Positions 3,511 through 28,568 are shown, counted from the first letter of the stretch. The stretch is 28,804 nucleotides of DNA from Nitrospirota bacterium (GCA_031413335.1 JANOEZ010000010.1:1-28804), one strand, 5' to 3'. The notes: generated by a model not told the origin, from the sequence alone. Made by a program: numbers and translations.

Positions 3511-4217
3511 AAGTCGAACAACTCGGCGGGCTGAAAGTTCGTCTGACCGGCGGTACGGATGGCCGAGGCGGCGGCGACGGCCCGGTCGTTGTCCTACTGC
3601 ACGGGTGGGGCGCGCCGGGCGACGACCTGGTGCCGCTTGGGCAGGAAATTGCCGCACCGCGCGGGACGCGCTTCGTCTTTCCCGAAGCGCCGCTATCTCT
3701 GCAGATGGGCTTCGGCGATTCCCGCGCCTGGTGGATGCTGGATCTTGAACAACGTCAGCGCGAGATCGCTGCTGGCCGCGCGCGCGATCTCTCACGCAAG
3801 GTCCCGGAGGGATTGGCTGAGGCGCGGACCAAGGTGATTGCGCTGCTCGACGAACTAGAGCGCCGTCTCGGCGCGAAGCCGATCGTTCTTGGCGGTTTCT
3901 CGCAAGGCGCGATGCTGGCTTGTGATGTGGCGTTGCACACCGGCAAACCGTTGGCTGGCTTGGTCATGTTGTCCGGAACCCTGCTGGCAGCGGATGAGTG
4001 GACGCCGCTGATGCCGAAGCGAAAAGGGCTGAAGGTGTTTCAGAGCCACGGCAGCATGGACCAACTGCTTCCGTCCTTCATGGCCGAGTCATTGCGCGAT
4101 CTGCTCACTCAAGCGGGGCTGTCGGTCGAATGGGTGGGCTTTCGGGGCGGACACGAGATTCCAGGCGTAGTGCTTGAGAAGCTGGGCGGGTTTCTTCGGG
4201 CCGTGCTCGCGCACTAA
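3507..4217 (+). CDS. Phospholipase/carboxylesterase (alpha/beta hydrolase)
   Basis: VVLLHGWG, RFVFPEAP, nucleophile motif GGFSQG, HGSMDQLL (Asp) and GGHEI (His). ATGA overlap with the upstream gene supports the start at 3507. Confidence 0.92.
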   Translation: MKVEQLGGLKVRLTGGTDGRGGGDGPVVVLLHGWGAPGDDLVPLGQEIAAPRGTRFVFPEAPLSLQMGFGDSRAWWMLDLEQRQREIAAGRARDLSRKVPEGLAEARTKVIALLDELERRLGAKPIVLGGFSQGAMLACDVALHTGKPLAGLVMLSGTLLAADEWTPLMPKRKGLKVFQSHGSMDQLLPSFMAESLRDLLTQAGLSVEWVGFRGGHEIPGVVLEKLGGFLRAVLAH

Positions 4218-4281
4218 CGACGCTTCACGGACGACAGGCTCACGGCCCCGAGTCATGTCGAAGGGCGAACGACGAGATACG
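4216..4281. repeat. Degenerate heptamer repeats (single orientation) between the convergent esterase and SulP genes
   Basis: AACGACG-CTTCACG-GACGACA (4216-4236) and AAGGGCG-AACGACG-AGATACG (4261-4281). No clear complementary arm. Confidence 0.45.
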
Positions 4282-8343: not shown

Positions 8344-8464
8344 GGTTCCACTCGCCGTCCGAAAGCGACACGGCGTCACGAATGAACGCAGACGGGCGCG
8401 CTCCGTCATCATCGGAGAGGCGCGGTAAAGTTTTCCGCACGGGTATCCGATGCGTGTCACCCGC

Positions 8465-8656
8465 ATGACTCGCGAACTCACCATCGACCGCATCAGCATT
8501 CGCCGCTGGACCATCCAGCGCGAAGCCCTGCCGCCGTTCTGCCCGGATTGCGAGTCGCGAGTCGTGCGGGTGACGACGGACGACCGGCGTGTTTTTTTCT
8601 GTTCCTGCCAGATCCTGGCGGATGAATACCTGCCCGGGCGGCGCGTCATCGACTGA
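8465..8656 (+). CDS. Small cysteine-motif (putative zinc-binding) protein
   Basis: 63 aa (alternative ATG at 8450) with CPDC and CSC. Third codon positions are mostly G/C like neighbouring genes, and it fills an otherwise empty intergenic space. No clear SD. Confidence 0.55.
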
Positions 8657-11845: not shown

Positions 11846-13321
11846 ATGCCGACACTGCATAAGTTGGAAGAGCTTCCCCTCGACAACACCTACGCGCGGT
11901 TGCCGGAGGCGTTCTACGCCAGGGTCGAGCCGACGCCGCTGCCGAATCCTCATCTCGTGAGCTTCAATCCGGACGCGGCCGCGCTGCTGGACCTGGATCC
12001 GGACGAGGCCAAACGGCCGGAGTTCGCCGGCGTGTTCGGCGGGCAGTTGCTCATCCCCGGCAGCGAGCCGATCGCGATGCTCTATTCGGGGCATCAGTTC
12101 GGTATCTACGCGGGGCAGCTGGGGGACGGACGGGCGATCTTATTGGGCGAAGTGCGCAACAGTCGCGGAGAGCAGTGGGACCTGCATCTGAAAGGCGCGG
12201 GGCAGACGCCGTTTTCACGCGATGGCGACGGCCGCGCCGTGTTGCGCTCCGCGATTCGGGAATATCTCTGCGGGGAAGCCATGCACGGGTTGGGTATTCC
12301 GACGACCCGCTCGCTCTGCATCGTCGCCGGGGATGAGGCAGTCCTGCGTGAACGTCCGGAAGTCGGCGCGATGCTGTTGCGGATGGCCCCCACGCACGTG
12401 CGGTTCGGCTCCTTTCAGGCGTTCTTTGCCCGCCGGCAGCCGGAGTACGTTACGCAGCTCGCCGACTACGTGATCGCCCGGTTCTACACGCATCTGGCCG
12501 CGGCCGGCGACCGGTATCCGCGATTCTTTCAGGAGGTCGCGGTCCGCACCGCGCAGTTGATCGCGAAGTGGCAGGCGGTCGGCTGGGCGCACGGCGTCAT
12601 GAACAGCGACAACATGTCCATCGTCGGGCTCACCCTCGACTACGGACCCTACGGGTTTCTCGATGCCTACGATCCATCGTTCATCTGCAACCACTCAGAC
12701 CATCACGGACGGTACTCGTTCCGAAACCAGCCGGACATCGGCTATTTCAACCTGCGCTGCCTCGGCCAGGCGCTGTCGTCTCTGGTCACGTCGCAGCAGG
12801 AACAGGAGGCGCTGGCGGCCTACGAAGCCGTCTTCGCATCGCATTATCAGGAGTTGATGCGGGGCAAGCTGGGATTGCAAAAATCGACATCGGAGGACGG
12901 CGCGCTGATCCGCGATCTGCTCGCATTGATGGCGATGAACCAGGCGGACTACACGAACTGCTTTCGCGCGCTGGGGAAATTCACGAGCGGCGAGACAGAC
13001 AGGAATGAGGCGTTGCGGGACTTCTTCGTGGATCGCGACGGGTTCGACCGCTGGGCCGCACGATACCGGGAACGGCTGAGGGCGGAGACCGGCCACGACG
13101 AGGATCGCCGGCTGCGCATGAACCGCGTCAATCCCAAGTACATTCTCCGCAACTATCTGGCGCAGACGGCCATCGAGCGGGCCCAACAGAAAGACTATTC
13201 GGAAATCGACCGCCTTCGACGATTGCTCACAGATCCCTTTGCAGAGCAGGCGGACATGGATGCCTATGCCGCCCCGCCACCCGACTGGGGCCGGCAGATC
13301 CTCGTGAGCTGTTCCTCCTAA
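11846..13321 (+). CDS. selO: Protein adenylyltransferase SelO (YdiU)
   Basis: YSGHQFG, GQLGDGR, LKGAGQTPFSRDGDGRAVLRS, HGVMNSDNMSI, DYGPYGF, NPKYILRNYL and C-terminal VSCSS. Start placed at ATG 11846 by homology length. Confidence 0.96.
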   Translation: MPTLHKLEELPLDNTYARLPEAFYARVEPTPLPNPHLVSFNPDAAALLDLDPDEAKRPEFAGVFGGQLLIPGSEPIAMLYSGHQFGIYAGQLGDGRAILLGEVRNSRGEQWDLHLKGAGQTPFSRDGDGRAVLRSAIREYLCGEAMHGLGIPTTRSLCIVAGDEAVLRERPEVGAMLLRMAPTHVRFGSFQAFFARRQPEYVTQLADYVIARFYTHLAAAGDRYPRFFQEVAVRTAQLIAKWQAVGWAHGVMNSDNMSIVGLTLDYGPYGFLDAYDPSFICNHSDHHGRYSFRNQPDIGYFNLRCLGQALSSLVTSQQEQEALAAYEAVFASHYQELMRGKLGLQKSTSEDGALIRDLLALMAMNQADYTNCFRALGKFTSGETDRNEALRDFFVDRDGFDRWAARYRERLRAETGHDEDRRLRMNRVNPKYILRNYLAQTAIERAQQKDYSEIDRLRRLLTDPFAEQADMDAYAAPPPDWGRQILVSCSS

Positions 13322-13404: not shown

Positions 13405-13451
13405 AACAAACCTGCCCCCTGGCTCCTGAAGTGCCAGGGGGCAGGTTTGTT
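13405..13451 (-). terminator. Intrinsic terminator, probably bidirectional, between selO and the TPR gene
   Basis: Perfect 19-bp inverted repeat AACAAACCTGCCCCCTGGC-N9-GCCAGGGGGCAGGTTTGTT. The GC stem is followed by TTTGTTTT on the minus strand and TTTGTT on the plus strand. Confidence 0.8.
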
Positions 13452-13490: not shown

Positions 13491-14738
13491 TTACGGTTTC
13501 TTCGGAGAAGTGTTCTTTGCCGAAGCCGAGAGTTCCTTCGCGAGCGCCTGCGCATCCTCGCGTGGATTTCCCTTAAGAAGACCGAGCGCCTTGCTCGCGT
13601 CCGGCGGCACGCCGAGGCCCCGCGCATGGATGCGGGCCAGGATGAGGCGCGGATAGGGTAGTCCTTCATCACCGGCGGTTTTGAAGTACTCGAAAATCCG
13701 TCGGTCGTGAGAAGCCAGCTGGCCTTCCACGCCGCTGGCATAGAGAGTCTCCAATTGCGCCTGCGCCTGTTCGCTCAAGGCAGCCGCTTCATGGAGGAGC
13801 ACCGGCACGGCCTCCCGGACGCGCCCCGCCTGCAGAAGCCCCACACCGACACTCTCGTCCGGAGCCCGTCCCTTGAGATTGGACACCTGTTGCCAGAGCG
13901 AACGGCGGAATGCTGCGAAGGCGTCTTGTACGACGCGGGCTTCGCCGACCGACCGCTTGTCCGTCGGCAGGGTCATCTTTCGCAACTGGGCGAGCGCGTC
14001 CTTGGCCTGCGGGACTTCCTGATCGGCGGCGAGGAACCACCAGGAAATGGCGGCGGCCAGATTCCGCTCCACGCCTGTGCCGGAGGCCGAGGCGACCCCC
14101 GCATGGTATTGCGCCTGGGGCACGCCGGCCTGAGCGGCGGCCAGAAATTCTTTTGTGGACTCACTATCCTGTTTGTTCTGTTTGAGGGCCAGTCCCAGGT
14201 GGTAATGCGCCTCCGCATGGTCTGGTCTCAGCCGTAATGCTTCCCGGTAGGATTCGATGGCCCCGCGCCGATCGCCCAGCCGGTCCCGAACCAGGCCGAG
14301 GTTATAGTGCGCCGGCACCGAGTCCGGTTGCAGGCTCACGGCGGTCTGCAGGGCGGTTTGCGCGCCCGCCCAGTCGTGCGTGACCATCAAGGCCGTACCC
14401 AGGCTGAGATGCCCGTGGGCCAGGTCCGGCTGCTGACGGATGACCGTGCGGTAGGCGTCGATCGCGCTGTCGATGTCGCCGCTGAGATAGAGCGCGGTTC
14501 CGAGGCTGAAGCGGGCCTGGACAAGACCCGGCTGCAGGCGCAACGCCTCCCGAAATTCCGCCTTGGCGCCCAGCAGATCGCCCGACGACAACAACCCGAC
14601 GCCTTGCGAGTAATGCAGGTGCGCGGGCTCGCGGCCGGACGATTGGCTGGACGGCGTGTCGGCACCGAGCGCAGGGACAGGCTCAAGGCCGAACGCGACC
14701 CCCGACAAGACAACGAGCACGGCCATCATCCTATTCAT
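13491..14738 (-). CDS. Secreted TPR/Sel1-like repeat protein
   Basis: Signal-like N-terminus from ATG 14738 (SD AAAGGA). Several TPRs (ARFSLGTALY, AHYNLGLV, AHYHLGLAL) are followed by Sel1-like units (AQYHAG...GVERNLAAAISWW..AA; LARIHARGLGV). Confidence 0.88.
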   Translation of the reverse strand: MNRMMAVLVVLSGVAFGLEPVPALGADTPSSQSSGREPAHLHYSQGVGLLSSGDLLGAKAEFREALRLQPGLVQARFSLGTALYLSGDIDSAIDAYRTVIRQQPDLAHGHLSLGTALMVTHDWAGAQTALQTAVSLQPDSVPAHYNLGLVRDRLGDRRGAIESYREALRLRPDHAEAHYHLGLALKQNKQDSESTKEFLAAAQAGVPQAQYHAGVASASGTGVERNLAAAISWWFLAADQEVPQAKDALAQLRKMTLPTDKRSVGEARVVQDAFAAFRRSLWQQVSNLKGRAPDESVGVGLLQAGRVREAVPVLLHEAAALSEQAQAQLETLYASGVEGQLASHDRRIFEYFKTAGDEGLPYPRLILARIHARGLGVPPDASKALGLLKGNPREDAQALAKELSASAKNTSPKKP

Positions 14739-14810
14739 GAGGATCCTTTCTTCACGGAAGTATGCGGCGGAGGGGGAGTATAGCATTCGGCGAAAAAAGA
14801 AACACGGGCG

Positions 14811-19582: not shown

Positions 19583-21193
19583 ATGCCTGAGTCCATCCCC
19601 CCTCCGGATCCGCCCAGCCGGCAACCCAGCGAGAATCACCACGTCGTCAGATCCGCCGGCGTGATTGGCCTGGCGACCTTCGCCAGCCGCATCCTCGGCT
19701 TCGTTCGGGACATGGTGCTGGCGAGCCTCTTTGGGGCCACGGCTGCGGCCGATGCCTTCTTCGTCGCCTATCGTGTTCCAAACCTCCTGCGTGAACTGTT
19801 CGCCGAAGGCTCCATGTCCTCGGCGTTCATTCCGGTCTTCACCGAATACCATACGCTCCGCGCCAAGCAGGACGCCTGGGAGCTGGCCAGCGCTGTCTTC
19901 ACGACGCTGCTCACGATCGTGATCGCCATCACGCTCCTCGGCATCCTGGCTGCGCCGGGGATTGTCTGGCTGCTGGCGCCAGGCTTCCACGGTCATCCCG
20001 ACAAATTGGCGATGACGACGATGCTGACGCGGATCATGTTTCCCTATCTGCTGTTCATCAGCCTGGCGGCGCTGGCCATGGGCATTCTGAATTCGCTCCG
20101 TGCGTTCGCCGCACCGGCGCTCTCGCCGGTCTTTTTCAATCTCTTCATCATCGGCTGCGCGCTGTTTCTTTCTCCGGCTTTTCCGGAGCCGATCCTCGGC
20201 GTGGCGATCGGGGTCGTCGCCGGCGGCGCGGCGCAGTTTGCGATGCAGGTGCCGGGATTGGCGCTGCGCGGCATGCTGTTCGGCTGGCGGTTTCAGCCGT
20301 GGCATCCCGGCGTGAGACGCATCGGTACGCTGATGGTCCCGTCGCTGCTGGGCCTCTCGGTGACGCAGATCAACATCACGGTCAGCACGATCCTGGCGTC
20401 GTTCTTTGCCGGCGGGCCGACCTATCTGTTTTACGGGATGCGGTTGATTCAATTTCCCCTCGGCATCTTCGGCGTGGCGCTGGCCACGGCGATTCTGCCG
20501 ACGCTCTCCGCGCAGGCGGCGCGCGGCGCGCTGGATGAATTACGCAGCACGCTGGCCTTCGGCCTGCGCATGATTGTCTTCATCATCCTGCCCGCGATGC
20601 TGGGGCTGATCCTGCTGCGGCAGCCGATCGTGCACCTGTTTTTCGAGCACGGCTCGTTCACCGCGGCGGACACCGTCGCCACGGCGACGGCCGTCCTCTG
20701 TTATGCGGTCGGGCTCTGGGCTTTTGCCGGCGTGCGGATCATCGTCGCGGCCTTTTACTCGATGCAGGATACCGTCACCCCGGCAAAGGCGGCGGCCGTC
20801 TCCGTGCTGGCCAATCTGGCCTTTTCGATTCTGCTGATGGACCGGCTGGAGGCCGCGGGCCTGGCGCTGGCGACGGCGCTGGCCTCGATGCTGAACGTGG
20901 GTATCCTGGTCATCGTGTTGAATCGGCGACTGGGCAGCGTGGGCTGGGCCTCGATCGCGCGGTCTGCGTGGCGCACGGTGCTGGCGACGCTGCCGCTCAT
21001 CGTGGCCTGTGTCTGGGTTGCCGGCGCGGAGGTGTGGGCGCATGAGGGCGAGTGGATCGCTAAGACGATCATGCTGGCGGTCGGCATCGGTTTGAGCATC
21101 ACGGGTTATGTCGGTGTACATGCGCTGTTGCGGTCGGAAGAATTGGATGTCGTGTGGGGCATGGTGAAACGGAAAGTGAGGAGTGAGGCGTAA
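19583..21193 (+). CDS. murJ: Lipid II flippase MurJ (MviN)
   Basis: SRILGFVRD, ADAFFVAYRVPNLLRELFAEG, AFIPVF and RLIQFPLGIFG, with many TM helices. Confidence 0.97.
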   Translation: MPESIPPPDPPSRQPSENHHVVRSAGVIGLATFASRILGFVRDMVLASLFGATAAADAFFVAYRVPNLLRELFAEGSMSSAFIPVFTEYHTLRAKQDAWELASAVFTTLLTIVIAITLLGILAAPGIVWLLAPGFHGHPDKLAMTTMLTRIMFPYLLFISLAALAMGILNSLRAFAAPALSPVFFNLFIIGCALFLSPAFPEPILGVAIGVVAGGAAQFAMQVPGLALRGMLFGWRFQPWHPGVRRIGTLMVPSLLGLSVTQINITVSTILASFFAGGPTYLFYGMRLIQFPLGIFGVALATAILPTLSAQAARGALDELRSTLAFGLRMIVFIILPAMLGLILLRQPIVHLFFEHGSFTAADTVATATAVLCYAVGLWAFAGVRIIVAAFYSMQDTVTPAKAAAVSVLANLAFSILLMDRLEAAGLALATALASMLNVGILVIVLNRRLGSVGWASIARSAWRTVLATLPLIVACVWVAGAEVWAHEGEWIAKTIMLAVGIGLSITGYVGVHALLRSEELDVVWGMVKRKVRSEA

Positions 21194-21262
21194 GGAGTAA
21201 GGCGTGAAGCGATCCATCCAAAAAGGCTCCCGTCACATCACTCCTCACTCCGTACCGCTCAC
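21174..21262. repeat. Heptamer-array palindrome at the murJ/ogt junction
   Basis: Left arm AAGTGAG-GAGTGAG-GCGTAAG-GAGTAAG-GCGTGAA (21174-21208). Right arm ...CATCAC-TCCTCAC-TCCGTAC-CGCTCAC (ending 21262) is complementary in unit. Confidence 0.85.
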
Positions 21263-21788
21263 GTCCGTCATTTTTCGAACGAAGCTCGGCTGGGCGGGCG
21301 TGGCGGGAACCGCGAAGGGCGTGAACGCGATCGTCCTCGCGAAACCTTCGCGGCGCGCCGCCGAACAGGCCCTGGGAACGAGGGCGGTGCAGGGCGAGGG
21401 CAGTCCGTCACGCGTCGCCCGTCAGGCAGTGCGCACTGCGCGGACCCAGATCGCCGCCTATCTAGCCGGCCGCCGCCGCACGCTCGACTTCCCGGTCGAT
21501 CTTTCCGGTGGCACGTCGTTTCAAAGAAAAGTCTGGCAGGCCGCGTTGCGGATTCCCTACGGCCGCGCGCGATCCTACCAGTGGATTGCATCGAAGGTCG
21601 GAGGAAAGCAGTATGCACGGGCGGTGGGCAGCGCGCTGGGGGCCAATCCGGTGCTGCTGATCGTGCCCTGCCATCGGGTGGTGGCGCACGACGCCTCCCT
21701 CGGTGGATTTGCCTGCGGCCTTGCGGTCAAGCGAAAGCTGTTGGAGCTGGAAGGCACGCTGGCGCTGCTTACGCGAGGCGCGAGGTGA
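21204..21788 (+). CDS. ogt: Methylated-DNA--protein-cysteine methyltransferase
   Basis: FQRKVWQA..IPYG, SYQWIA..G, ARAVGSALGANP and active-site IVPCHRVV. The N-terminal ~20 aa derive from the repeat element. Confidence 0.93.
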   Translation: MKRSIQKGSRHITPHSVPLTSVIFRTKLGWAGVAGTAKGVNAIVLAKPSRRAAEQALGTRAVQGEGSPSRVARQAVRTARTQIAAYLAGRRRTLDFPVDLSGGTSFQRKVWQAALRIPYGRARSYQWIASKVGGKQYARAVGSALGANPVLLIVPCHRVVAHDASLGGFACGLAVKRKLLELEGTLALLTRGAR

Positions 21789-21863
21789 TAGGTAATGGGT
21801 TATAGGCAAGAAAACAGAAAGACAGGATTCTTACCTCTCGCCCATAACCTATTGCCCATTGCC
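21784..21863. repeat. Heptamer-array palindrome at the ogt/dtd junction
   Basis: GGTGATA-GGTAATG-GGTTATA-GGCAAGA (21784-21811), a 17-nt spacer, then TCTTACC-TCTCGCC-CATAACC-TATTGCC-CATTGCC (21829-21863). Confidence 0.9.
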
Positions 21864-21871
21864 TGGTTGTC

Positions 21872-22318
21872 ATGAAAGCCGTGATCCAGCGCGTGACGCG
21901 CGCGTCGGTGGAAGTGGACGGCAGGATCGTCGGGCAGATCCGCGCCGGTCTCGTCGTCCTGCTTGGCGTGGCCAAGGGCGATACCGAAACAGACCTCGCG
22001 TATCTGGTCGAAAAGATTCCCGCGCTGAGGATTTTCAGCGACGAGGCCGGCAAGATGAACCGTTCGCTGGCTGAGATCGGCGGCGGGGTGCTGGCGATTT
22101 CGCAATTCACCCTGCTGGGCGACACCCGCAAGGGGCGCCGTCCCGGCTTCGACCAGGCTGCTGATCCGGCGATGGCCCAGCGCCTGTACGAACAGTTCAT
22201 CGAACAATTGCGGCAGACGACGGATTTGACCGTGGAAACGGGCGTCTTCGGCGCGCATATGAAAATCGATCTGGTCAACGATGGTCCGGTGACGTTTGTA
22301 TTGGACAGCCGGGGGTAA
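21872..22318 (+). CDS. dtd: D-aminoacyl-tRNA deacylase
   Basis: [25 protein letters not shown] and [17 protein letters not shown] (Gly-cisPro motif). Confidence 0.97.
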
Positions 22319-22430
22319 CGGTCAAGTCCGTTCTGAAGGGACCGATACAGGAACAGGATCCCTTGCCCTTGCCAGGATGAGCAGAGGCTGGCATACTCCG
22401 GGCACTGTTTCGTGGTCGGGGAGGTGAGCG

Positions 22431-22994
22431 ATGGAAACGCGAATCCCTGAGCATCACCCGTTGCGCCGGCTGTTCGGCTCCCTGACCGAACGGCGCTTTC
22501 TCGAGACCTTGGGCTGGCCGGATCAGAACGTCACCGAGTACCTCTCCAACCTGCTCGTCGAATTCGTGCATACCGACCGGCTGTTCAAGATCCGCAACCA
22601 GCGCGGCAAACGTCTCGATACCGCTGTCGAGCTGCTGTATGAATCCGAAGTGCTGCTGGAGGCGCAGTCGCTGGACCGCGAGCAGGACGTGCATCGCCAC
22701 ATCGGTGACTTCACGCTGTTCATGGCCGGCCTCTTCCCGGAATATCTCAAGCGGCTCAAGTCCGCGAGCATGATCTATCACCAGGACTTCCTGGTGGATT
22801 ACGTCAAAACCGGCAAACGCTCCTATGGCATCGTCGCCCGCTGCGAGGGAGGCTCCGGCACGCAGACCCCGCTCTTCGTCAAGCTCTCCGAGAACTTTGA
22901 ACTCTGCGTGGCAGGCCTGGGCTTCGTTCGGGGCGATCTCGACCGTATGCAGGACCCCTCCTACCGCAAGGTCAAGGACATCCTTCTCAATTAA
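22431..22994 (+). CDS. Conserved hypothetical helical protein
   Basis: Strong SD GGAGGTG. The HRHIGDFTLFMAGLFPEYL...YVKTGKRSY...LFVKLSENFE pattern recalls an uncharacterised family seen in other bacteria. Confidence 0.85.
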   Translation: METRIPEHHPLRRLFGSLTERRFLETLGWPDQNVTEYLSNLLVEFVHTDRLFKIRNQRGKRLDTAVELLYESEVLLEAQSLDREQDVHRHIGDFTLFMAGLFPEYLKRLKSASMIYHQDFLVDYVKTGKRSYGIVARCEGGSGTQTPLFVKLSENFELCVAGLGFVRGDLDRMQDPSYRKVKDILLN

Positions 22995-23002
22995 ATTTTT
23001 AG

Positions 23003-23078
23003 TGAGTCAGAAAGTCAAAAAGTCGTAAAGTCTTAATGTCCGAAGACATGATGACTTTGGACTTTCAGACTTTATGAC
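23003..23078. repeat. Octamer-array palindrome upstream of the asparaginase gene
   Basis: TGAGTCAG-AAAGTCAA-AAAGTCGT-AAAGTCTT-AATGTCCG (23003-23042), then the complementary core GACTTT at 23053, 23060 and 23068. Confidence 0.85.
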
Positions 23079-24027
23079 GCACCATCCCATTATCCTCGCC
23101 CACGGCGGGGCCGGCACCAGGCCCATGACCGGCGACCAGCGTGAGTGCCTAGCCGACGCCTTGCGGGCCGGCTATCAACTCTTGCAACGCAGGGCTCCGG
23201 CGCTTGATGCCGTGGAGGCGACCATCCGCATGCTGGAGGCCTCCGGTCTGTTCAATGCCGGTGTCGGATCGAAACTGCAACTCGACGGCGCGCGCCGCAT
23301 GGATGCCTCCATCATGGAGGGACGAAGGTTGCGGGCCGGCGCCGTCGCGTCCATTCAAGGCATCCGCCATCCCATCACCGCCGCGCGGCTCGTCATGGAA
23401 GAAACCGTGCATGTGCTGATGGTCGGCGAGCCGGCCACACGTTTCGCGCAGCGGTTCAAGCTGGAGCGCCAGCTGCCTCCGACCCGTTCGCAGCGTGCCG
23501 CGTCCCGGGCCGAACGCAAATCAGCTGGTCAAAGAGAACCGTGGGCTGCCGAAACTCTCAAATTATTTGCCAGGCTCAAGCAAACTGATGTCCTCGGCCT
23601 GGAAACCGTCGGTGCCGTGGCGCTCGACAAGCGCGGCCACGTTGCCGCCGGCGCCTCGACCGGCGGGATCGCGCTCATGCTGCCCGGACGCGTCGGCGAT
23701 ACACCGCTGATCGGCTGCGGCGTCTATGCCGATGACGAAGCCGGCGCCGTGTCCATGACGGGCCTGGGGGAGAGCATCATCCGCATCGCGGTCGCCAAGG
23801 AAATTGTGGACCGGCTGGAGGCCGGGGCCAGTCCGTCCATGGCAATCCGTCAGGTGCTGCGCAAACTGATCTCCCGCGTGAAAGGCTCTGCCGGCGCATT
23901 GGTGCTTGCGCCGGACGGCCGCTTCGCCATCCGCCATACCACTCCACGCATGACCGCCGGTTATTGGGCCGGTGCCGGCGAGCCGGTCGTTGCGGACCGG
24001 TTTTTCCCGGAAGCTTTGACAAAATGA
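23074..24027 (+). CDS. iaaA: Isoaspartyl peptidase/L-asparaginase (Ntn hydrolase, asparaginase 2 family)
   Basis: HGGAG, LFNAG, MDASIM, autocleavage site E/TVGAVALD, STGG and GRVGDTPLIGCG. Confidence 0.93.
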   Translation: MTHHPIILAHGGAGTRPMTGDQRECLADALRAGYQLLQRRAPALDAVEATIRMLEASGLFNAGVGSKLQLDGARRMDASIMEGRRLRAGAVASIQGIRHPITAARLVMEETVHVLMVGEPATRFAQRFKLERQLPPTRSQRAASRAERKSAGQREPWAAETLKLFARLKQTDVLGLETVGAVALDKRGHVAAGASTGGIALMLPGRVGDTPLIGCGVYADDEAGAVSMTGLGESIIRIAVAKEIVDRLEAGASPSMAIRQVLRKLISRVKGSAGALVLAPDGRFAIRHTTPRMTAGYWAGAGEPVVADRFFPEALTK

Positions 24028-24092
24028 GATCAGATCATTAGTCTCTGCCGCAGAGGACCGAGACAGCGCGGCATCACATTGAGCGGAGAGTC

Positions 24093-24644
24093 ATGAGCAC
24101 ATCTGAGCCCTGGTCAACGACGCAGGATGACGTTGAGACGGCGAACGAATTCTACCAGGCCATTCTCAGCCCGCTGCAATCCGACCGTGGAGTCCATGCG
24201 GAAACAGCGGTCGCAGCAGCGGCGCGTATGGCGGGAACCTTCCTGTTCCGGTCGTTCAATCTGCCGATGACTGGAATCACGCCAGGGTCGGCGGTGTTGT
24301 CCGATGTTGCGAACGAGCAGGGCCCCAAACTCATTGGCGCGTTGTTCGGGGTATTGGGTGCGCTCAAGGTTCCGCTCGACCCCTCGAAGGTGACGTACGA
24401 CACGCCCGGGGAGAATCGACCGCAGTGGAGCGTTCTGGAGACACAATCCAGACTCGGTGCGACCTTTCGTGCCGCCGCCGCCAGGCACGGTTTGGCCGAC
24501 CGCCGCGCGGCGTTTGCGAGTGTCATGGCCGCCGCATGGCTGATTCGCGATACGGCATCGGTTCTGGATCCGCACATCGCCGCCGGCATTGCACTCTATG
24601 GGTTTGTCGAAGGCGCGAAAACGGCTCCGGCCACGGGTGAATGA
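24093..24644 (+). CDS. Hypothetical protein
   Basis: 183 aa, SD GGAGAG, helical (GVHAETAVAAAARMAGTFLFRSF ... YGFVEGAKTAP). No function recognised. Confidence 0.8.
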   Translation: MSTSEPWSTTQDDVETANEFYQAILSPLQSDRGVHAETAVAAAARMAGTFLFRSFNLPMTGITPGSAVLSDVANEQGPKLIGALFGVLGALKVPLDPSKVTYDTPGENRPQWSVLETQSRLGATFRAAAARHGLADRRAAFASVMAAAWLIRDTASVLDPHIAAGIALYGFVEGAKTAPATGE

Positions 24645-24652
24645 GGAACACG

Positions 24653-25084
24653 ATGGCGCACATTATTTTTCACCTCGCTTTTCCGGTCACCGATCTCAAC
24701 GCGGCGAAGAAGTTTTACGTGGAGGGGCTCGGCTGCACGCTCGGGCGCGAGTCGGACTCCGCTCTGATTCTCGGATTGGCCGGCAATCAGATCGTGGCGC
24801 ATCTCACGAAAGAGCCGGTGGCGCAGAAGGGCATCTACCCGCGCCATTTTGGATTGGTGTTCACGAACGAAACGGACTGGCAGGCGCTCGCGGATCGCGC
24901 GAAGGCAAAAGGCCTGAAGTTTTATCAGGAGCCCCGCCACCGTTTTCCCGGCCAGCGTACGGAGCATCGGACATTTTTCCTCGAAGACCCTTCCAGCAAT
25001 CTCCTCGAATTCAAGCACTATGCGCACGAGTCCGCCATCTTCGGCGAGCAGGACCATGGCGAGATTGGCGACGCCAAGGAATGA
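24653..25084 (+). CDS. VOC/glyoxalase family protein (COG3565-like)
   Basis: FHLAFPVTDL..AKKFY...LGC, NQIVAHL, PRHFGLVF and FFLEDPSSNLLEFK. ATG at 24653 after GAGGA. Confidence 0.9.
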   Translation: MAHIIFHLAFPVTDLNAAKKFYVEGLGCTLGRESDSALILGLAGNQIVAHLTKEPVAQKGIYPRHFGLVFTNETDWQALADRAKAKGLKFYQEPRHRFPGQRTEHRTFFLEDPSSNLLEFKHYAHESAIFGEQDHGEIGDAKE

Positions 25085-25093
25085 TCGCGCGGC

Positions 25094-25915
25094 TCATTTC
25101 GTCTCGCGAGTTGAACGCGGGACAGGCCGGGTTCCGTTCTCTTTCGGCTGGTGCGGGACGATCCGTGTCCCGCCATCGTTGCCGGTCACCGATTGCTTGC
25201 CCTCGCGTTCATTCAGCAAGCGGAGAATTTGCTGCTGGCGCACAGAGAGATACCGCGTGACCGTCAGCGGGTCATAGGCTCTGGGAGAGGGCAGCATGGC
25301 CGCCAGGAGCGCGGCTTCCTCCTGGGATAGATCGGCCGCGTGCTTGCCGAAATGGTGGCGGGCGGCGGCTTCGGCTCCGTAGACGCCCTGGCCCCACTCG
25401 ACGACGTTCAAATACAACTCCAGGATGCGCTTCTTGGTCAGATGCCGCTCGAGCGCGTCGGCAATCAGCGCTTCATTGGCCTTGCGCAACAGGGTTTTGC
25501 CGGATGACAGGTAGAGATTCTTCGCCAATTGCTGCGTGATCGTGCTGCCGCCGCGCTGCAGCTTGCCTTCGGCGAGGTCGCGCAAGGCCGCCTCTTTGAT
25601 CCCCTCCCAATCGAATCCCTCGTGAAAATAGAAAGAAGCGTCCTCGGAGATGATCACCGCGTGCTGCAGCACCGGTGCGATCTCCGCCAGCGGTACCCAG
25701 ACACGGTTGGGTTCGGTATCCGGGTCTGTCGCGCGCGCCTCCGCCAGCCGCGCTTCGATCAGTGCCGTGGTCTTCGGATTGGCCGTCGCGAGGCGCGGTA
25801 CGTCCGGAAATGTCAGCCACCAGTAGAGGGCCAGGCAGGCCGGCGGCAGGACGAGCAGGAGCACGAGGCCCAGCGCGATGCGGAGCATGATGCGGCGGAA
25901 AGTTGACTTCGCCAT
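25094..25915 (-). CDS. mtgA: Monofunctional peptidoglycan transglycosylase (GT51)
   Basis: N-terminal TM segment, SEDASFYFHEG, GGSTITQQLAKNLYL, RKANE, KKRILELYLNVVEWG and AALLAAMLPSP. No transpeptidase domain. Confidence 0.93.
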   Translation of the reverse strand: MAKSTFRRIMLRIALGLVLLLVLPPACLALYWWLTFPDVPRLATANPKTTALIEARLAEARATDPDTEPNRVWVPLAEIAPVLQHAVIISEDASFYFHEGFDWEGIKEAALRDLAEGKLQRGGSTITQQLAKNLYLSSGKTLLRKANEALIADALERHLTKKRILELYLNVVEWGQGVYGAEAAARHHFGKHAADLSQEEAALLAAMLPSPRAYDPLTVTRYLSVRQQQILRLLNEREGKQSVTGNDGGTRIVPHQPKENGTRPVPRSTRETK

Positions 25916-25938
25916 GAGCCGATGATACAGCAAAACGG

Positions 25939-25973
25939 ACGTCAAACGTGAAACGTAAGGTGTGAAACGAAAT
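25939..25973 (+). repeat. Single heptamer array upstream of engB
   Basis: ACGTCAA-ACGTGAA-ACGTAAG-GTGTGAA-ACGAAAT, ending on the engB ATG. No complementary arm found. Confidence 0.7.
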
Positions 25974-26583
25974 GAAAATTCTTTCCGTCGAATTCATCAA
26001 GAGCTGCGAGCAACCGGACCAGTTTCCAAAAGACCGGATGCCCGCGGTCGCCTTCGCCGGGCGGTCCAACGTGGGGAAATCCTCGCTGATCAATTCACTG
26101 CTGCGCCGGAAGGGGGTCGCGCGGGTGAGCCGCACCCCTGGCAAGACGCAACTGATCAACGTGTTTCGGGTGACGACCGATGATCCGGCGATCCGGCAGT
26201 TCCATGCGGTGGATTTGCCCGGGTACGGGTACGCGAAGGTGTCCAAAACCATCCGCGCCCGCTGGCAGCCGTTGATCGAACAGTACCTGACCGGCCACGA
26301 GGACCTGCGGGGCGTGCTGCTGCTGGTCGATTCGCGCAGGACGGAGCGCCAGGATGCGGAGGCCGTCGACTGGCTGCTCCGGAGCGGGCTCCCGGTGCTG
26401 CTGGTGGCGACGAAGTCGGACAAGCTCTCGCGCAGCGAGCGTGCGGGCAGTCTCGCGGCGCTTCGCAACACATTCGGGCTTCCAGCGGAGGCCGATGTGG
26501 TGGCCTATTCGTCCGTGACGCACGAGGGACGGGATGCACTGTGGCAGGCGATCAGGAAGATGCTCACCGCATCTCAGGACTGA
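25972..26583 (+). CDS. engB: Ribosome biogenesis GTP-binding protein YihA/EngB
   Basis: G1 GRSNVGKSS, G2 PGKT, G3 DLPGYG and G4 TKSDK. Confidence 0.96.
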   Translation: MKILSVEFIKSCEQPDQFPKDRMPAVAFAGRSNVGKSSLINSLLRRKGVARVSRTPGKTQLINVFRVTTDDPAIRQFHAVDLPGYGYAKVSKTIRARWQPLIEQYLTGHEDLRGVLLLVDSRRTERQDAEAVDWLLRSGLPVLLVATKSDKLSRSERAGSLAALRNTFGLPAEADVVAYSSVTHEGRDALWQAIRKMLTASQD

Positions 26584-26656
26584 GTTATGAGGACTGAGAG
26601 GGGCGGAGAACTTCTGAAGCATCTGCCTCAGTCCCCAGCACTCGGCCCTCAGTCCT
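26574..26656. repeat. Heptamer-array palindrome between convergent engB and the SurA-like gene
   Basis: TCAGGAC-TGAGTTA-TGAGGAC-TGAGAGG (26574-26601), a spacer, then CCTCAGT-CCCCAGC-ACTCGGC-CCTCAGT-CCT (26626-26656). Confidence 0.88.
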
Positions 26657-27648
26657 TATAACTTCACTTCGATGTAGGCTTTGCTCTTGAGGTCGGTCAT
26701 CCAGCTCTGGTAGCGGTCCGCGCTTTTCTGCTGAAATACGATTCCCTGCGTCTCGTTTTTGACTTCTTCCAGCGGGCGAAACTGCGCCGCCTTCTTTTCA
26801 TCCAGGCGGATGATATGGATGCCCTCGGCTGTTTCCACTGGGTCGCTGACCTGCCCCGGCTGAAGCGCCGAGATGGCCCGCTCGATGGGGGGATCCATTT
26901 CGCCCTGACGAATGAAGCCCAGGGCGCTGCCGCGGGTTGCATCGGGCGCGTCGGAGTAGCGCAACGCCAGGTCGTCGAATTCTCCGCCCTTTTTGAACTG
27001 GCCGTAGACGTCGCGCGCGCGCACCCGAAGGTCCTTCCGCGATTCGGTTTTTCTGGGCAACAGGAGGATCTGGCTGATCCGGTATTCTTCGGGAAGCATG
27101 AACAGCGTCAAATGCCGCTCGTAGAAGCGCTTGATGTCGGTCTCGGACACCATCACGCCGGTCCGGACTTCCCGGTTCTCGAGGGTGAAGAGGACCAACT
27201 GCTCCTTGAGCGCATTCTTTTCCTTGGGATTGTCGAGGTTCACCGGCGTGCCCCGCTGGGCCAGGTCCATTGCCGTCCGCCGGAGATCCTCCTCGGAGGC
27301 CTCCATGCCCTTGGTCCGCGCATGCTGCATCTGGAGCCGCCGCTCGATCATGCGAGAAAGGGCCCGGTGCTCGGCCTGCTGCAGCCGGCTCCGGAGCTCG
27401 GCGCCGCGGTGCTGTTGTTGCAGGCGCTTGCGCTCCGGCTCCATGTCCGTCTTGAGCTCGGAGAGCATGATCACTTCCTTGTTGACGACGGCGACGATCC
27501 GGTCCGTGAGATCCGCCGCATCGGTCGGCAGCGGCAGCGCGGTCGTGGCGGCCAGGACGACACCCATCAGCAGGCCGGCGCCGACACGAGGGCCGGGCCG
27601 GGGCGACCGGCGATGAAACTCGGGCATTGCGTCAGGCTGTGGAGTCAT
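26656..27648 (-). CDS. surA: SurA-like periplasmic chaperone / parvulin PPIase
   Basis: Signal-like segment, SurA N-domain DRIVAVVNKEVIMLSEL and a rotamase domain (YRISQILL, GEFDDLALRYSD, GSALGFI). Confidence 0.85.
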   Translation of the reverse strand: MTPQPDAMPEFHRRSPRPGPRVGAGLLMGVVLAATTALPLPTDAADLTDRIVAVVNKEVIMLSELKTDMEPERKRLQQQHRGAELRSRLQQAEHRALSRMIERRLQMQHARTKGMEASEEDLRRTAMDLAQRGTPVNLDNPKEKNALKEQLVLFTLENREVRTGVMVSETDIKRFYERHLTLFMLPEEYRISQILLLPRKTESRKDLRVRARDVYGQFKKGGEFDDLALRYSDAPDATRGSALGFIRQGEMDPPIERAISALQPGQVSDPVETAEGIHIIRLDEKKAAQFRPLEEVKNETQGIVFQQKSADRYQSWMTDLKSKAYIEVKL

Positions 27649-27659
27649 GGCTGCAACCG

Positions 27660-28568
27660 CTACGGGGTGGGTACGCCGGGCACATGGCCTGGAGCGTCGG
27701 GAATGATCCGGGCGGCGTTCTCCATGCGGATGGAAGCCTTGCTCCGCAGGGACGCCAGAAATTCTTCGAATTGCTTGCGGCGTTTCTCGGCAGCCAGCTC
27801 CTGCTGGAGCCGCTCGCGGGCGACGTGCGCGCTCCGGGCGTCCAGGGGATCGCGGCTGGTGACCTTCACCAGGGCGAAGCCCGCCGGCACCTGGATCGGC
27901 TCGCTGACGGCGCCCGGGTTCTGCGTGAGAATCGCGGCTTCAATCTCAGGCGGCGCGGCGCCCTTCCGGTACGGGCCCAGATCGCCCCCGCGGAACTTCG
28001 TCGCCTGATCGGTCGAAAACTTTTGCGCCAGCTTGGCGAAATCCGCCCCCCCCTCCAGTTGTTTTCTCAACTCCAGCGCCTGCATGGCGGTGGGGACGAT
28101 GATCTGCGCCGCGCGAATGTGTTCCGTGGCCAGGACGGCGGACGAATGCGCCATGTAATAGTCTTCCAGTTCGTCCTGCGTCACCGGCACGTCCCGCTTC
28201 GCCACGTCCCGCACCAACTCGTCCAGCGTCAACTGTTCCTGGAACCGCTGGACCTTCTCGCGAATTTCCGTCGTCTGATCGAGGCCCAGGCGGCGCGCTT
28301 CCTGCAGCAGCAATTCCCGCGCGATCATGTCCTCCAAAAATTTCTTCTGACCGCCTTCGCGCTGGTAACGGGCCTGCCGGGACTCCGGCAGTTCGGCCCA
28401 TCGGACGTCGAACTCGCTCTGCGTAATGGGCATGCTGTTCACCATGGCGACGACACGGGGCTCGTCGGAGGAGGCTGGCGTGCAGGCGGACACGGCGACG
28501 ATCGCGCAGGCCAGCGCCATGCGCACAGTGGTGAGTGCCGAATGCTGGGTGCTGAACGGTGTTTGCAC
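27660..28568 (-). CDS. PpiC/parvulin-type peptidyl-prolyl isomerase, probable lipoprotein (PrsA-like)
   Basis: Lipobox VSAC, VVAMVNSMPIT, IRAAQII, GADFAKLAQKFSTD and GGDLG. The start is uncertain (GTG 28568 or ATG 28520). Confidence 0.9.
   Translation of the reverse strand: MQTPFSTQHSALTTVRMALACAIVAVSACTPASSDEPRVVAMVNSMPITQSEFDVRWAELPESRQARYQREGGQKKFLEDMIARELLLQEARRLGLDQTTEIREKVQRFQEQLTLDELVRDVAKRDVPVTQDELEDYYMAHSSAVLATEHIRAAQIIVPTAMQALELRKQLEGGADFAKLAQKFSTDQATKFRGGDLGPYRKGAAPPEIEAAILTQNPGAVSEPIQVPAGFALVKVTSRDPLDARSAHVARERLQQELAAEKRRKQFEEFLASLRSKASIRMENAARIIPDAPGHVPGVPTP
28528..28555. repeat. Single heptamer array inside the PPIase 5' end
   Basis: GTGGTGA-GTGCCGA-ATGCTGG-GTGCTGA on the plus strand; translated on the minus strand as STQHSALTT. 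Confidence 0.65.

Follow-up and report, generated by a model that had tools for sequence, protein, structure and literature searches.

Paired word arrays at gene junctions of a Nitrospiraceae genome as probable gene-less members of an S23p-associated class of palindromic elements

What produces intergenic hairpins that share one architecture without sharing one sequence? The question is raised by a 28,804-nt stretch of DNA (JANOEZ010000010.1:1-28804, contig C10; the window) from the metagenome-assembled genome (MAG) of a Nitrospirota bacterium, GCA_031413335.1, here designated G000. The MAG belongs to the Nitrospirales/Nitrospiraceae and comprises 2.18 Mb in 594 contigs with 61% G+C, and DNA of the stretch was found mostly in freshwater-sediment and sediment metagenome runs; no run contained it as RNA. 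A preliminary description of the window had reported four complete hairpin elements, designated E1–E4, each composed of 4–5 degenerate words of 7 or 8 nt, a spacer, and a complementary array. Our analysis indicates that these are probably gene-less members of a class of insertable palindromic elements associated with S23p, a protein of the family PF05635 whose genes lie between similar inverted arrays elsewhere in the same genome.

The coordinates and units reported for the four elements were reproduced. Their arms are as follows:

21174–21211: E1 left arm, five 7-nt words of the AGTGAGG/CGTAAGG type (TRF period 7; lag-7 autocorrelation 0.77, 0/2000 shuffles; fold)
21229–21262: E1 right arm, complementary CCTCACT-type array (inverted repeat I5; fold z −4.1/−5.0)
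21783–21811: E2 left arm, four 7-nt words, GGTGATA/GGTAATG/GGTTATA/GGCAAGA (palindrome score 18.5; lag-7 autocorrelation 0.68, 0/2000)
21836–21864: E2 right arm, complementary array; 7 nt separate its end from the dtd ATG (21872)
23003–23041: E3 left arm, 8-nt words AAAGTCNN (TRF period 8; lag-8 autocorrelation 0.74, 0/2000; fold z −7.9)
23046–23078: E3 right arm, GACTTTNN words, the last of which contains the ATG (23074) of the isoaspartyl-peptidase (Asparaginase_2) gene
26573–26600: E4 left arm, GGACTGA-family words with the engB stop codon (26581–26583) inside (inverted repeats I2, I11)
26627–26663: E4 right arm, TCAGTCC-family words, extending to the surA stop codon (minus strand, ends 26656)

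Pfam backs the earlier identification of murJ, ogt, dtd, engB, and surA and also placed the Asparaginase_2 gene and a transglycosylase gene around the elements. Element arms and gene ends are interlocked: the murJ stop codon TAA (21191–21193) sits within the third word of the E1 left arm, the ogt stop codon TGA (21786–21788) within the first word of the E2 left arm, and the E3 left arm begins 8 nt past the stop codon TAA (22992–22994) of a hypothetical gene. RNA folds, scored against 200 dinucleotide shuffles on both strands, gave z-scores of −4.1 (plus strand) and −5.0 (minus strand) for E1 (21168–21268), −5.2 and −5.4 for E2 (21778–21870), and −7.9 and −8.0 for E3 (22995–23085); the fold of E4 (26565–26662) was weaker, with −2.8 and −2.0. 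TRF reported period 7 at 21175–21207 and period 8 at 23005–23032, and every arm exceeded 2000 shuffles in lag-7/8 autocorrelation, the right arm of E1 being the weakest (65/2000). All four elements consist of inverted arrays of words in the 6–9-nt range around a loop. Their stems are 25–35 bp long, with a G+C content of 0.40–0.57 and without a T-run, and the loops measure 4–30 nt, so that E1–E4 are gene-less forms with no PF05635 gene in a loop of their own.

Elements of this kind are abundant in the genome. Since RNALfold with a window of 130 produced thousands of matches at 61% G+C and was therefore non-discriminating, it was replaced by an ungapped palindrome scan controlled by genomes shuffled within 60-nt blocks. 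The scan yielded 349 matches in G000 versus 57–74 in the shuffled genomes; 157 versus about eight reached a score of at least 15, and 140 versus one per shuffled genome had both arms periodic with the same period. The caveat of the preliminary description, that shuffled sequence might give paired arrays at a similar density, is thereby removed. Among the 140 elements, period 7 prevails (104), followed by 9 (21), 8 (10), 6 (4), and 10 (1). About ten word families were distinguished, the largest being CCGTGAT (29 elements), GGACTGA (25), TAGCRAA (24), GGTTTNTCT (18), and CGTTAAT (15), with AGTGAAA (7), AAAGTCNN (7), GAGGTT (4), and others among the smaller ones. The elements have a mean G+C content of 0.485 versus 0.61 for the genome, and 115 of them are less than 30% coding. 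As many as 28 of the 140 adjoin a contig end, with no called gene on one side, and the elements thus explain the fragmentation of the MAG.

Within a word, a core of 3–5 nt conserved at 96–100% stands next to near-random positions, and an arm most often has 4–5 words and rarely more than six. Copies of one family are mostly 75–81% alike (median about 79%), and only three 9-mer copies reach 93–96%. Head-to-tail repetition of a single unit, as in the short tandemly repeated repetitive (STRR) sequences, is evident from 334 period-7 arrays in G000 versus 38 in shuffles, and where two such arrays are adjacent they are inverted in 60 cases and direct in six. Polarity is fixed in each family (28/29, 25/25, 23/24, and 18/18 elements). 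The earlier statement that the purine-rich arm comes first is right for E1–E4 and fails as a general rule, since the 9-mer family starts with a T/G-rich arm and purines make up about 50% of CCGTGAT.

No gene other than that of PF05635 was found between arms. This family corresponds to S23p, the '23S rRNA intervening-sequence protein', an Avd-like four-helix bundle present in many phyla. The protein matches TIGR02436, more weakly the Avd model of diversity-generating retroelements (DGR), and, at E = 1e-13, PDB entry 2GSC, which we take to be the homopentameric S23p of Xanthomonas (Lin et al. 2006). All four PF05635 genes of G000 lie between inverted arrays, and these belong to four different families, with GGACTGA, CCGTGAT, the 8-mer CAAGCTGA, and the 9-mer AACCAGACA as flanking words; the right arm encodes the C-terminal tail of the S23p protein. 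Gene-less copies are abundant for the CCGTGAT, GGACTGA, and 9-mer words, and only one or two exist for the 8-mer CAAGCTGA. A strict arm test, in which both arrays had to show an autocorrelation of at least 0.7, the same period, and a mirrored word within 30%, was passed by 18 of 36 PF05635 genes from this and related genomes versus none of 600 random G000 genes.

The word families of E1–E4 themselves flank PF05635 genes in the same or in related genomes. The E4 word is identical to that of the arms of the PF05635 gene at C367:8132–8578 of G000, and the E3 word is identical to PF05635-flanking arrays in the related genomes G002 (L160) and G007 (L148). One mismatch separates the E1 word from a PF05635-flanking array in G009 (L134). 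For the E2 word, the automatic comparison found two mismatches to the nearest PF05635 arrays, and by eye it is of the GGCAATG/GGCGATA type of L150 and L161 (G012 and G002). Membership of E1–E4 in this class of paired word arrays is solid. The search for inserted four-helix-bundle genes, suggested in the preliminary description, was decisive, as PF05635 occupies the loops of full-length copies; the GxxExxY genes named alongside have no counterpart, PF13366 being absent from G000.

Two further observations concern the arrangement of the genes. PF05635 paralogues with different words cluster in several genomes, three to four of them lying within 14–31 kb (G002:C55 at 40806, 49750, 57645, and 58949; G009:C2 at 4582, 12013, and 17995; G224:C10; G200:C11). 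At C84:1900–2700 of G000, the S23p gene with 9-mer words is flanked by two complete palindromes, each with a T-arm, a loop, and an A-arm; this layout may explain the opposite, T/G-rich-first polarity of the gene-less 9-mer elements.

Proteins and words vary together. On an IQ-TREE phylogeny of 26 PF05635 proteins with manually labelled word groups, all six groups with at least two members formed single clades, and the number of word changes was 18, the minimum possible, with none of 200 shuffles as low. Related words (CTGA-type, CGTGA-type, most 8-mers, and most 9-mers) shared larger clades. Without manual labels, a Mantel r of 0.29 was obtained, a value reached by 4 of 2000 permutations, and the nearest protein neighbour had the same word length in 19 of 20 cases. 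Each protein lineage is firmly tied to its own word and word length. A separate case is that of the GGCTGAT-armed proteins of L149 (G015) and L151 (G011), which are near-identical (branch lengths 0 and 0.17) although they come from different genera, and this hints at horizontal transfer of the whole cassette.

From one congener to another, operon junctions acquire elements, lose them, or exchange them for others. The murJ–ogt junction holding E1 lies outside the congener alignments, and the comparisons of filled and empty sites cover other junctions. Gene order ogt–dtd–hyp–iaaA, in which hyp is the hypothetical gene, is kept across the family. In most relatives, including the congeners G005 and G001, hyp and iaaA overlap by TTGA and no element is present; in the window, in G007, G002, and G003, and in one other genus, an AAAGTC element of 80–158 nt occupies the junction. 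Where the element is present at this junction (compared at window 22992–23076 and in relatives L082 and L083), it supplies a new stop codon (TAA), and its last base together with the old TG forms a new ATG. Orthologous copies keep the AAGTC cores and vary in word number and in the free positions, and an E3-less contig from a related population was recovered in one run. The ogt–dtd junction carries a different family in nearly every lineage, and at the engB/surA junction five congeners have four families between them, the site in G005 being empty. At C367:8086, the full S23p element of G000 corresponds to a gene-less 9-mer element in G002 and G007 and to an ATGA overlap in three congeners. At C367:14237, a TAGC element in G000 is matched by a 9-mer element in G002 and G007, a decayed one in G001, and a 9–10-nt spacer in G003 and G005. 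Empty sites are ATGA or TTGA gene overlaps or spacers of 9–17 nt. The preliminary description had recommended looking for such sites at orthologous junctions, and congeners do contain them (ogt–dtd and engB–surA were compared).

A different repeat, about 125 nt long and bounded by conserved terminal inverted repeats of 22 nt (CAGGATGTTGAAAAAGGCC), is present at the dtd–hyp junction of three congeners. Its copies are at L084:1339–1464, L087:1325–1449, and L085, in G000 at C533:2296–2420 and C417:1916–2037, and in another genus at L008:8578–8702. It looks like an ordinary MITE (miniature inverted-repeat transposable element), unlike the word-array elements.

The distribution of arrays across relatives largely follows that of the gene. 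The search pattern GTNANNN ×4 gave 186 matches in G000, with three for the reverse control, and was present in all 15 genomes of the own family versus none of six in the sister families f2 and f4; PF05635 was found in 12 of the 15 versus none of the six. In family f3 the sole PF05635 gene, which is flanked by arrays, belongs to G029, and the array counts are 45 in G029, one in G032, and zero in G026. Among the congeners, matches number 12 in G005, which lacks the gene, and 19 in G001, whose one gene is broken, versus 79–186 in the others; G005 and G001 are the congeners with empty or decayed sites. CTGAG arrays occurred in all six genomes with a GGACTGA-clade protein versus 8 of 22 others (Fisher p = 0.016, uncorrected for phylogeny), the latter indicating that arrays can persist without the gene. 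In other Nitrospirota families (G163, G072, G135, and G149, for example), even the reversed control, GAGTC at intervals of 7 nt, is abundant, with up to 29 matches, so that other lineages have heptamer words of their own.

Could the hairpin itself be what the host selects, as an intercistronic stabiliser, an RNase III processing site, or a terminator tuning operon expression? The folds are very stable, and the stems of rRNA intervening sequences (IVSs) are RNase III substrates (PMC4990558). The position within operons would also suit such a role, since at co-directional junctions the upstream stop codon lies inside the left arm or no more than 10 nt from it in 68 of 83 cases (82%), and the median distance from element to next start codon is 13 nt. 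However, the elements occupy tandem, divergent, and convergent junctions (83, 16, and 13; 74/14/12%) as background gene pairs do (77/12/11.5%), and thus neither a terminator nor a promoter role is indicated. Transition mismatches on the sense strand at co-directional junctions comprise 118 G·U versus 158 A·C, so that the wobble signature of a selected RNA helix is missing. When arrays detected regardless of pairing were compared within families, left arms were as complementary to their own right arm as to right arms of other elements (0.785 versus 0.786; 0.812 versus 0.830; other families alike). The hairpin therefore follows from two mirror-image arrays, with no pair-by-pair compensation. There is no U-tract, scanning the window with Rfam (E ≤ 1) gave no family but only spurious miRNA matches on an unrelated palindrome, and congeners differ at the same junction in the presence or the family of the element. 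The specific case of an intrinsic terminator was rejected in view of stems of 25–35 bp without a T-run and a 14% share of divergent junctions versus 12% in the background. RNA stabilisation, processing, or termination, put forward in the preliminary description, is thus not borne out as a selected function by the junction classes, the G·U count, the missing compensation, or the lack of a U-tract and Rfam match, and we regard host-selected hairpins as quite unlikely.

A purely mutational origin would need no trans-acting partner: polymerase slippage would generate heptamer microsatellites, and template switching would mirror them. Among the long simple repeats of bacteria, heptamers are the most common (Mrazek 2007, via PMC4679880), and word number does differ between orthologous copies. 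Such a by-product is nevertheless unlikely, as near-invariant cores (96–100%) beside near-random positions, arms narrowly confined to 4–5 words, and fixed polarity set the arrays apart from simple slippage microsatellites; word families are shared by different genera, the two arms of one element resemble each other no more than arms of separate elements do, and the association and co-phylogeny with PF05635 genes are tight. Conserved cores point to recognition by a protein, and for paired arrays of Geobacter metallireducens the binding of nucleoid-associated or global regulators of the integration host factor (IHF)/HU type has been proposed in print (PMC2700814). Applied to the present arrays, that explanation appears very unlikely: at least ten word families per genome would need equally many regulators, the family at a given junction changes between congeners, and divergent junctions are not enriched. 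Classical MITEs, that is, deletion derivatives of insertion sequences with a DDE transposase and multi-site terminal inverted repeats, would account for the inverted ends, the G+C content of 0.485 versus 0.61, the filled and empty sites, and the few copies that are 93–96% alike, and Geobacter insertion sequences lie a constant distance away from similar arrays (PMC2700814). We consider them highly improbable here, since no target-site duplication is visible at the four filled/empty junctions compared in congeners, termini and interior are not conserved, arm length varies, loops vary and are unrelated, and median identity is about 79%; no transposase with such ends was seen, and PF05635 is the sole gene between arms. 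The earlier statement that E1–E4 are not copies of one MITE therefore stands.

The most plausible account, and in our judgement a probable one, remains that E1–E4 are gene-less members of the S23p-associated class. The shared design through a common generating system that the preliminary description envisaged is confirmed, and of the options it listed, footprints of small mobile cassettes comes closest, given the gene-bearing copies and the empty sites in congeners. Rare full-length copies have the PF05635/TIGR02436 four-helix-bundle gene in the loop between inverted arrays, and the words may be recognition modules of the cognate S23p. If the protein forms a homopentameric toroid, one word per protomer could account for the 4–5 words per arm. 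The fixed polarity, with the stop-rich arm first, is explained by the full copy: there the left arm, with 8.8 stops per 100 nt versus 4.5 expected, terminates translation coming from upstream, and the open right arm becomes the tail of S23p. In the main 7-mer families, stop codons occur in 2.3–2.7 frames of the left arm versus 0.4–0.9 of the right; a general rule of stops in every frame was rejected, since it fails in the 9-mer, AAAGTC, and CGTTAAT families. The gene-less copies would be non-autonomous relatives, mobilised or maintained in trans by S23p in a manner comparable to the REPIN/RAYT and NTS/Ssn systems. If transcribed, the 25–35-bp stems might be RNase III substrates like rRNA IVSs.

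Several points weigh against this interpretation. Binding, cutting, and movement are inferences, and to our knowledge PF05635 has no catalytic activity. Proteins and words would also agree if a gene is simply inherited together with the sequence on either side of it. No more than the 18 of 36 genes passed the strict arm test, the loops of gene-less elements contain no recognisable remnants of the 5' or 3' ends of resident S23p genes, and the missing target-site duplication counts here as well. The low identity between copies (75–81%) means that recent bursts are not evident, and the 9-mer family, with its gene between two complete palindromes, departs from the simple layout. G004 has 180 arrays and no PF05635 gene in an assembly that is 76% complete, and genomes that are 99% complete keep arrays without a gene of the cognate clade (seven in G083 and 34 in G209).

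Besides the four elements, the preliminary description had listed three single arms in the window, all of which were periodic at lag 7 above chance:

25939–25973, plus strand: single array of ACGTNAA ×4–5, directly 5' of the engB ATG (25972), at a divergent junction (lag-7 autocorrelation 0.57, 5/2000 shuffles)
4216–4281: weak degenerate period-7 stretch, below the stricter array detector, possibly a decayed arm (lag-7 autocorrelation 0.46, 12/2000)
28528–28555: short stretch with period 7 and GTGCTGA-type units, at the 5' end of the minus-strand gene 27660–28568 (lag-7 autocorrelation 0.67, 0/2000)

All six congeners compared (G000 among them) retain the ACGTNAA array at its place upstream of engB; the CGT cores of the array are more degenerate in the PF05635-poor genomes G001 and G005. 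The window also contains two non-periodic inverted repeats. A perfect, G+C-rich 19-bp palindrome with a 9-nt loop at 13405–13451, between the convergent genes 11846–13321 (plus strand) and 13491–14786 (minus strand), is probably a bidirectional terminator and was the source of the spurious miRNA matches in Rfam. At 8456–8574, a 20-nt inverted repeat with 95% complementarity and arms 79 nt apart overlaps a weak small open reading frame (ORF) at 8450–8656.

Since the 1990s, scattered reports have described inverted heptamer arrays and read them as G-quadruplexes, regulator sites, or rRNA curiosities; in the literature we found no paper that links such arrays and the S23p gene in general. In Coxiella burnetii, RNase III cleaves the 23S helix-45 IVS, which combines a stem of 28 bp with tandem GACAGAT heptamers and an ORF for S23p (Warrier et al. 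2016, PMC4990558), and the Xanthomonas S23p is a homopentameric toroid (Lin et al. 2006, cited in PMC4990558). The elements described here resemble this IVS in the long stem formed by terminal inverted repeats, the tandem heptamers in the arm, and the S23p gene in the loop of full copies; the heptamer copy number of the IVS varies between strains, and a formerly mobile nature has been proposed for it (PMC4990558). Unlike the IVS, the window elements are gene-less and lie between protein-coding genes, and their class comprises about ten word families and more than 100 copies per genome. A search aimed at an rRNA IVS in the MAG itself found no assembled 23S rRNA.

The GGGAATC arrays of Xanthomonas campestris and X. 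axonopodis are likewise intergenic, with about four heptamers and 70–75 inverted pairs per genome (Rehm et al. 2015, PMC4692102); they too lie nearer to the upstream ORF and differ in length between related species. There, a single G-rich word was read as a G-quadruplex (G4) former and no protein partner was named, whereas here many non-G4 words and a gene-bearing form are present. Paired 7-, 8-, and 9-mers of Geobacter metallireducens, of the classes GTTGCTYN, TCTCCGTS[Y], and MTYCTGA (Aklujkar et al. 2009, PMC2700814), form dozens of pairs of 3–5 tandem words on opposite strands with variable spacing, also within operons, proBA being one; the authors took them for IHF/HU 'global regulator binding sites', and no gene in the loop was reported.

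Cyanobacterial STRR sequences are short tandem heptamers in intergenic regions with lineage-specific words, and the comparison with them in the preliminary description is apt as an analogy. The TAACTGA direct repeats (MacGregor 2015, PMC4679880) are similar in being abundant intergenic tandem heptamers with words specific to lineages. Both are mostly described as direct arrays, and mirror-image pairing and a link to S23p are not part of those descriptions. Small genes framed by a repeat of which hundreds of gene-less copies lie dispersed, with each protein lineage having its own repeat, are also characteristic of the repetitive extragenic palindromic (REP)/REPIN–RAYT (PMC3116915, PMC3333891) and NTS–Ssn (PMC11893778) systems. 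However, RAYT and Ssn are proven nucleases or transposases, and REPs are single short G+C-rich hairpins. REP/REPIN–RAYT members are G+C-rich palindromes of 20–40 nt with a conserved GTAG/CGTC head and flank a Y1-transposase gene. Membership in this group was rejected because the arms here are word arrays with a G+C content below the genome mean, although the RAYT gene itself was not searched for. Operon MITEs such as Correia and Chunjie (PMC3184786) are, like the present elements, small inverted-repeat inserts that are richer in A+T and show filled and empty sites, and they are co-transcribed; they have defined termini, target duplications, and conserved interiors, none of which are found in the class of E1–E4.

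These likenesses allow a broader and more tentative proposal, in which S23p/PF05635 would be the missing partner of STRR sequences, of the Xanthomonas GGGAATC arrays, and of the Geobacter paired arrays. A protomer would read one word of 6–9 nt and the pentamer would measure an arm of 4–5 words, in a selfish, co-evolving, insertable protein–repeat system homing to operon junctions (stop/start overlaps) and rRNA helices. We consider this possible but rather doubtful; if true, it would be a third partnership of a gene with a dispersed repeat beside RAYT/REPIN and Ssn/NTS, and one without any known nuclease. The elements explain the fast intergenic turnover in the Nitrospiraceae and the remodelling, at operon junctions, of protein termini and of stop and start codons, and four S23p paralogues, each flanked by a word of its own, make a compact testable case for heptamer repeats and S23p. 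Inverted heptamer arrays in Xanthomonas and Geobacter and S23p within a heptamer-bearing stem in the Coxiella IVS are already in print; the present analysis adds a genus in which sites are filled or empty and families are swapped, a single genome with four pairs of paralogue and word, and a formal co-phylogeny covering word length as well.

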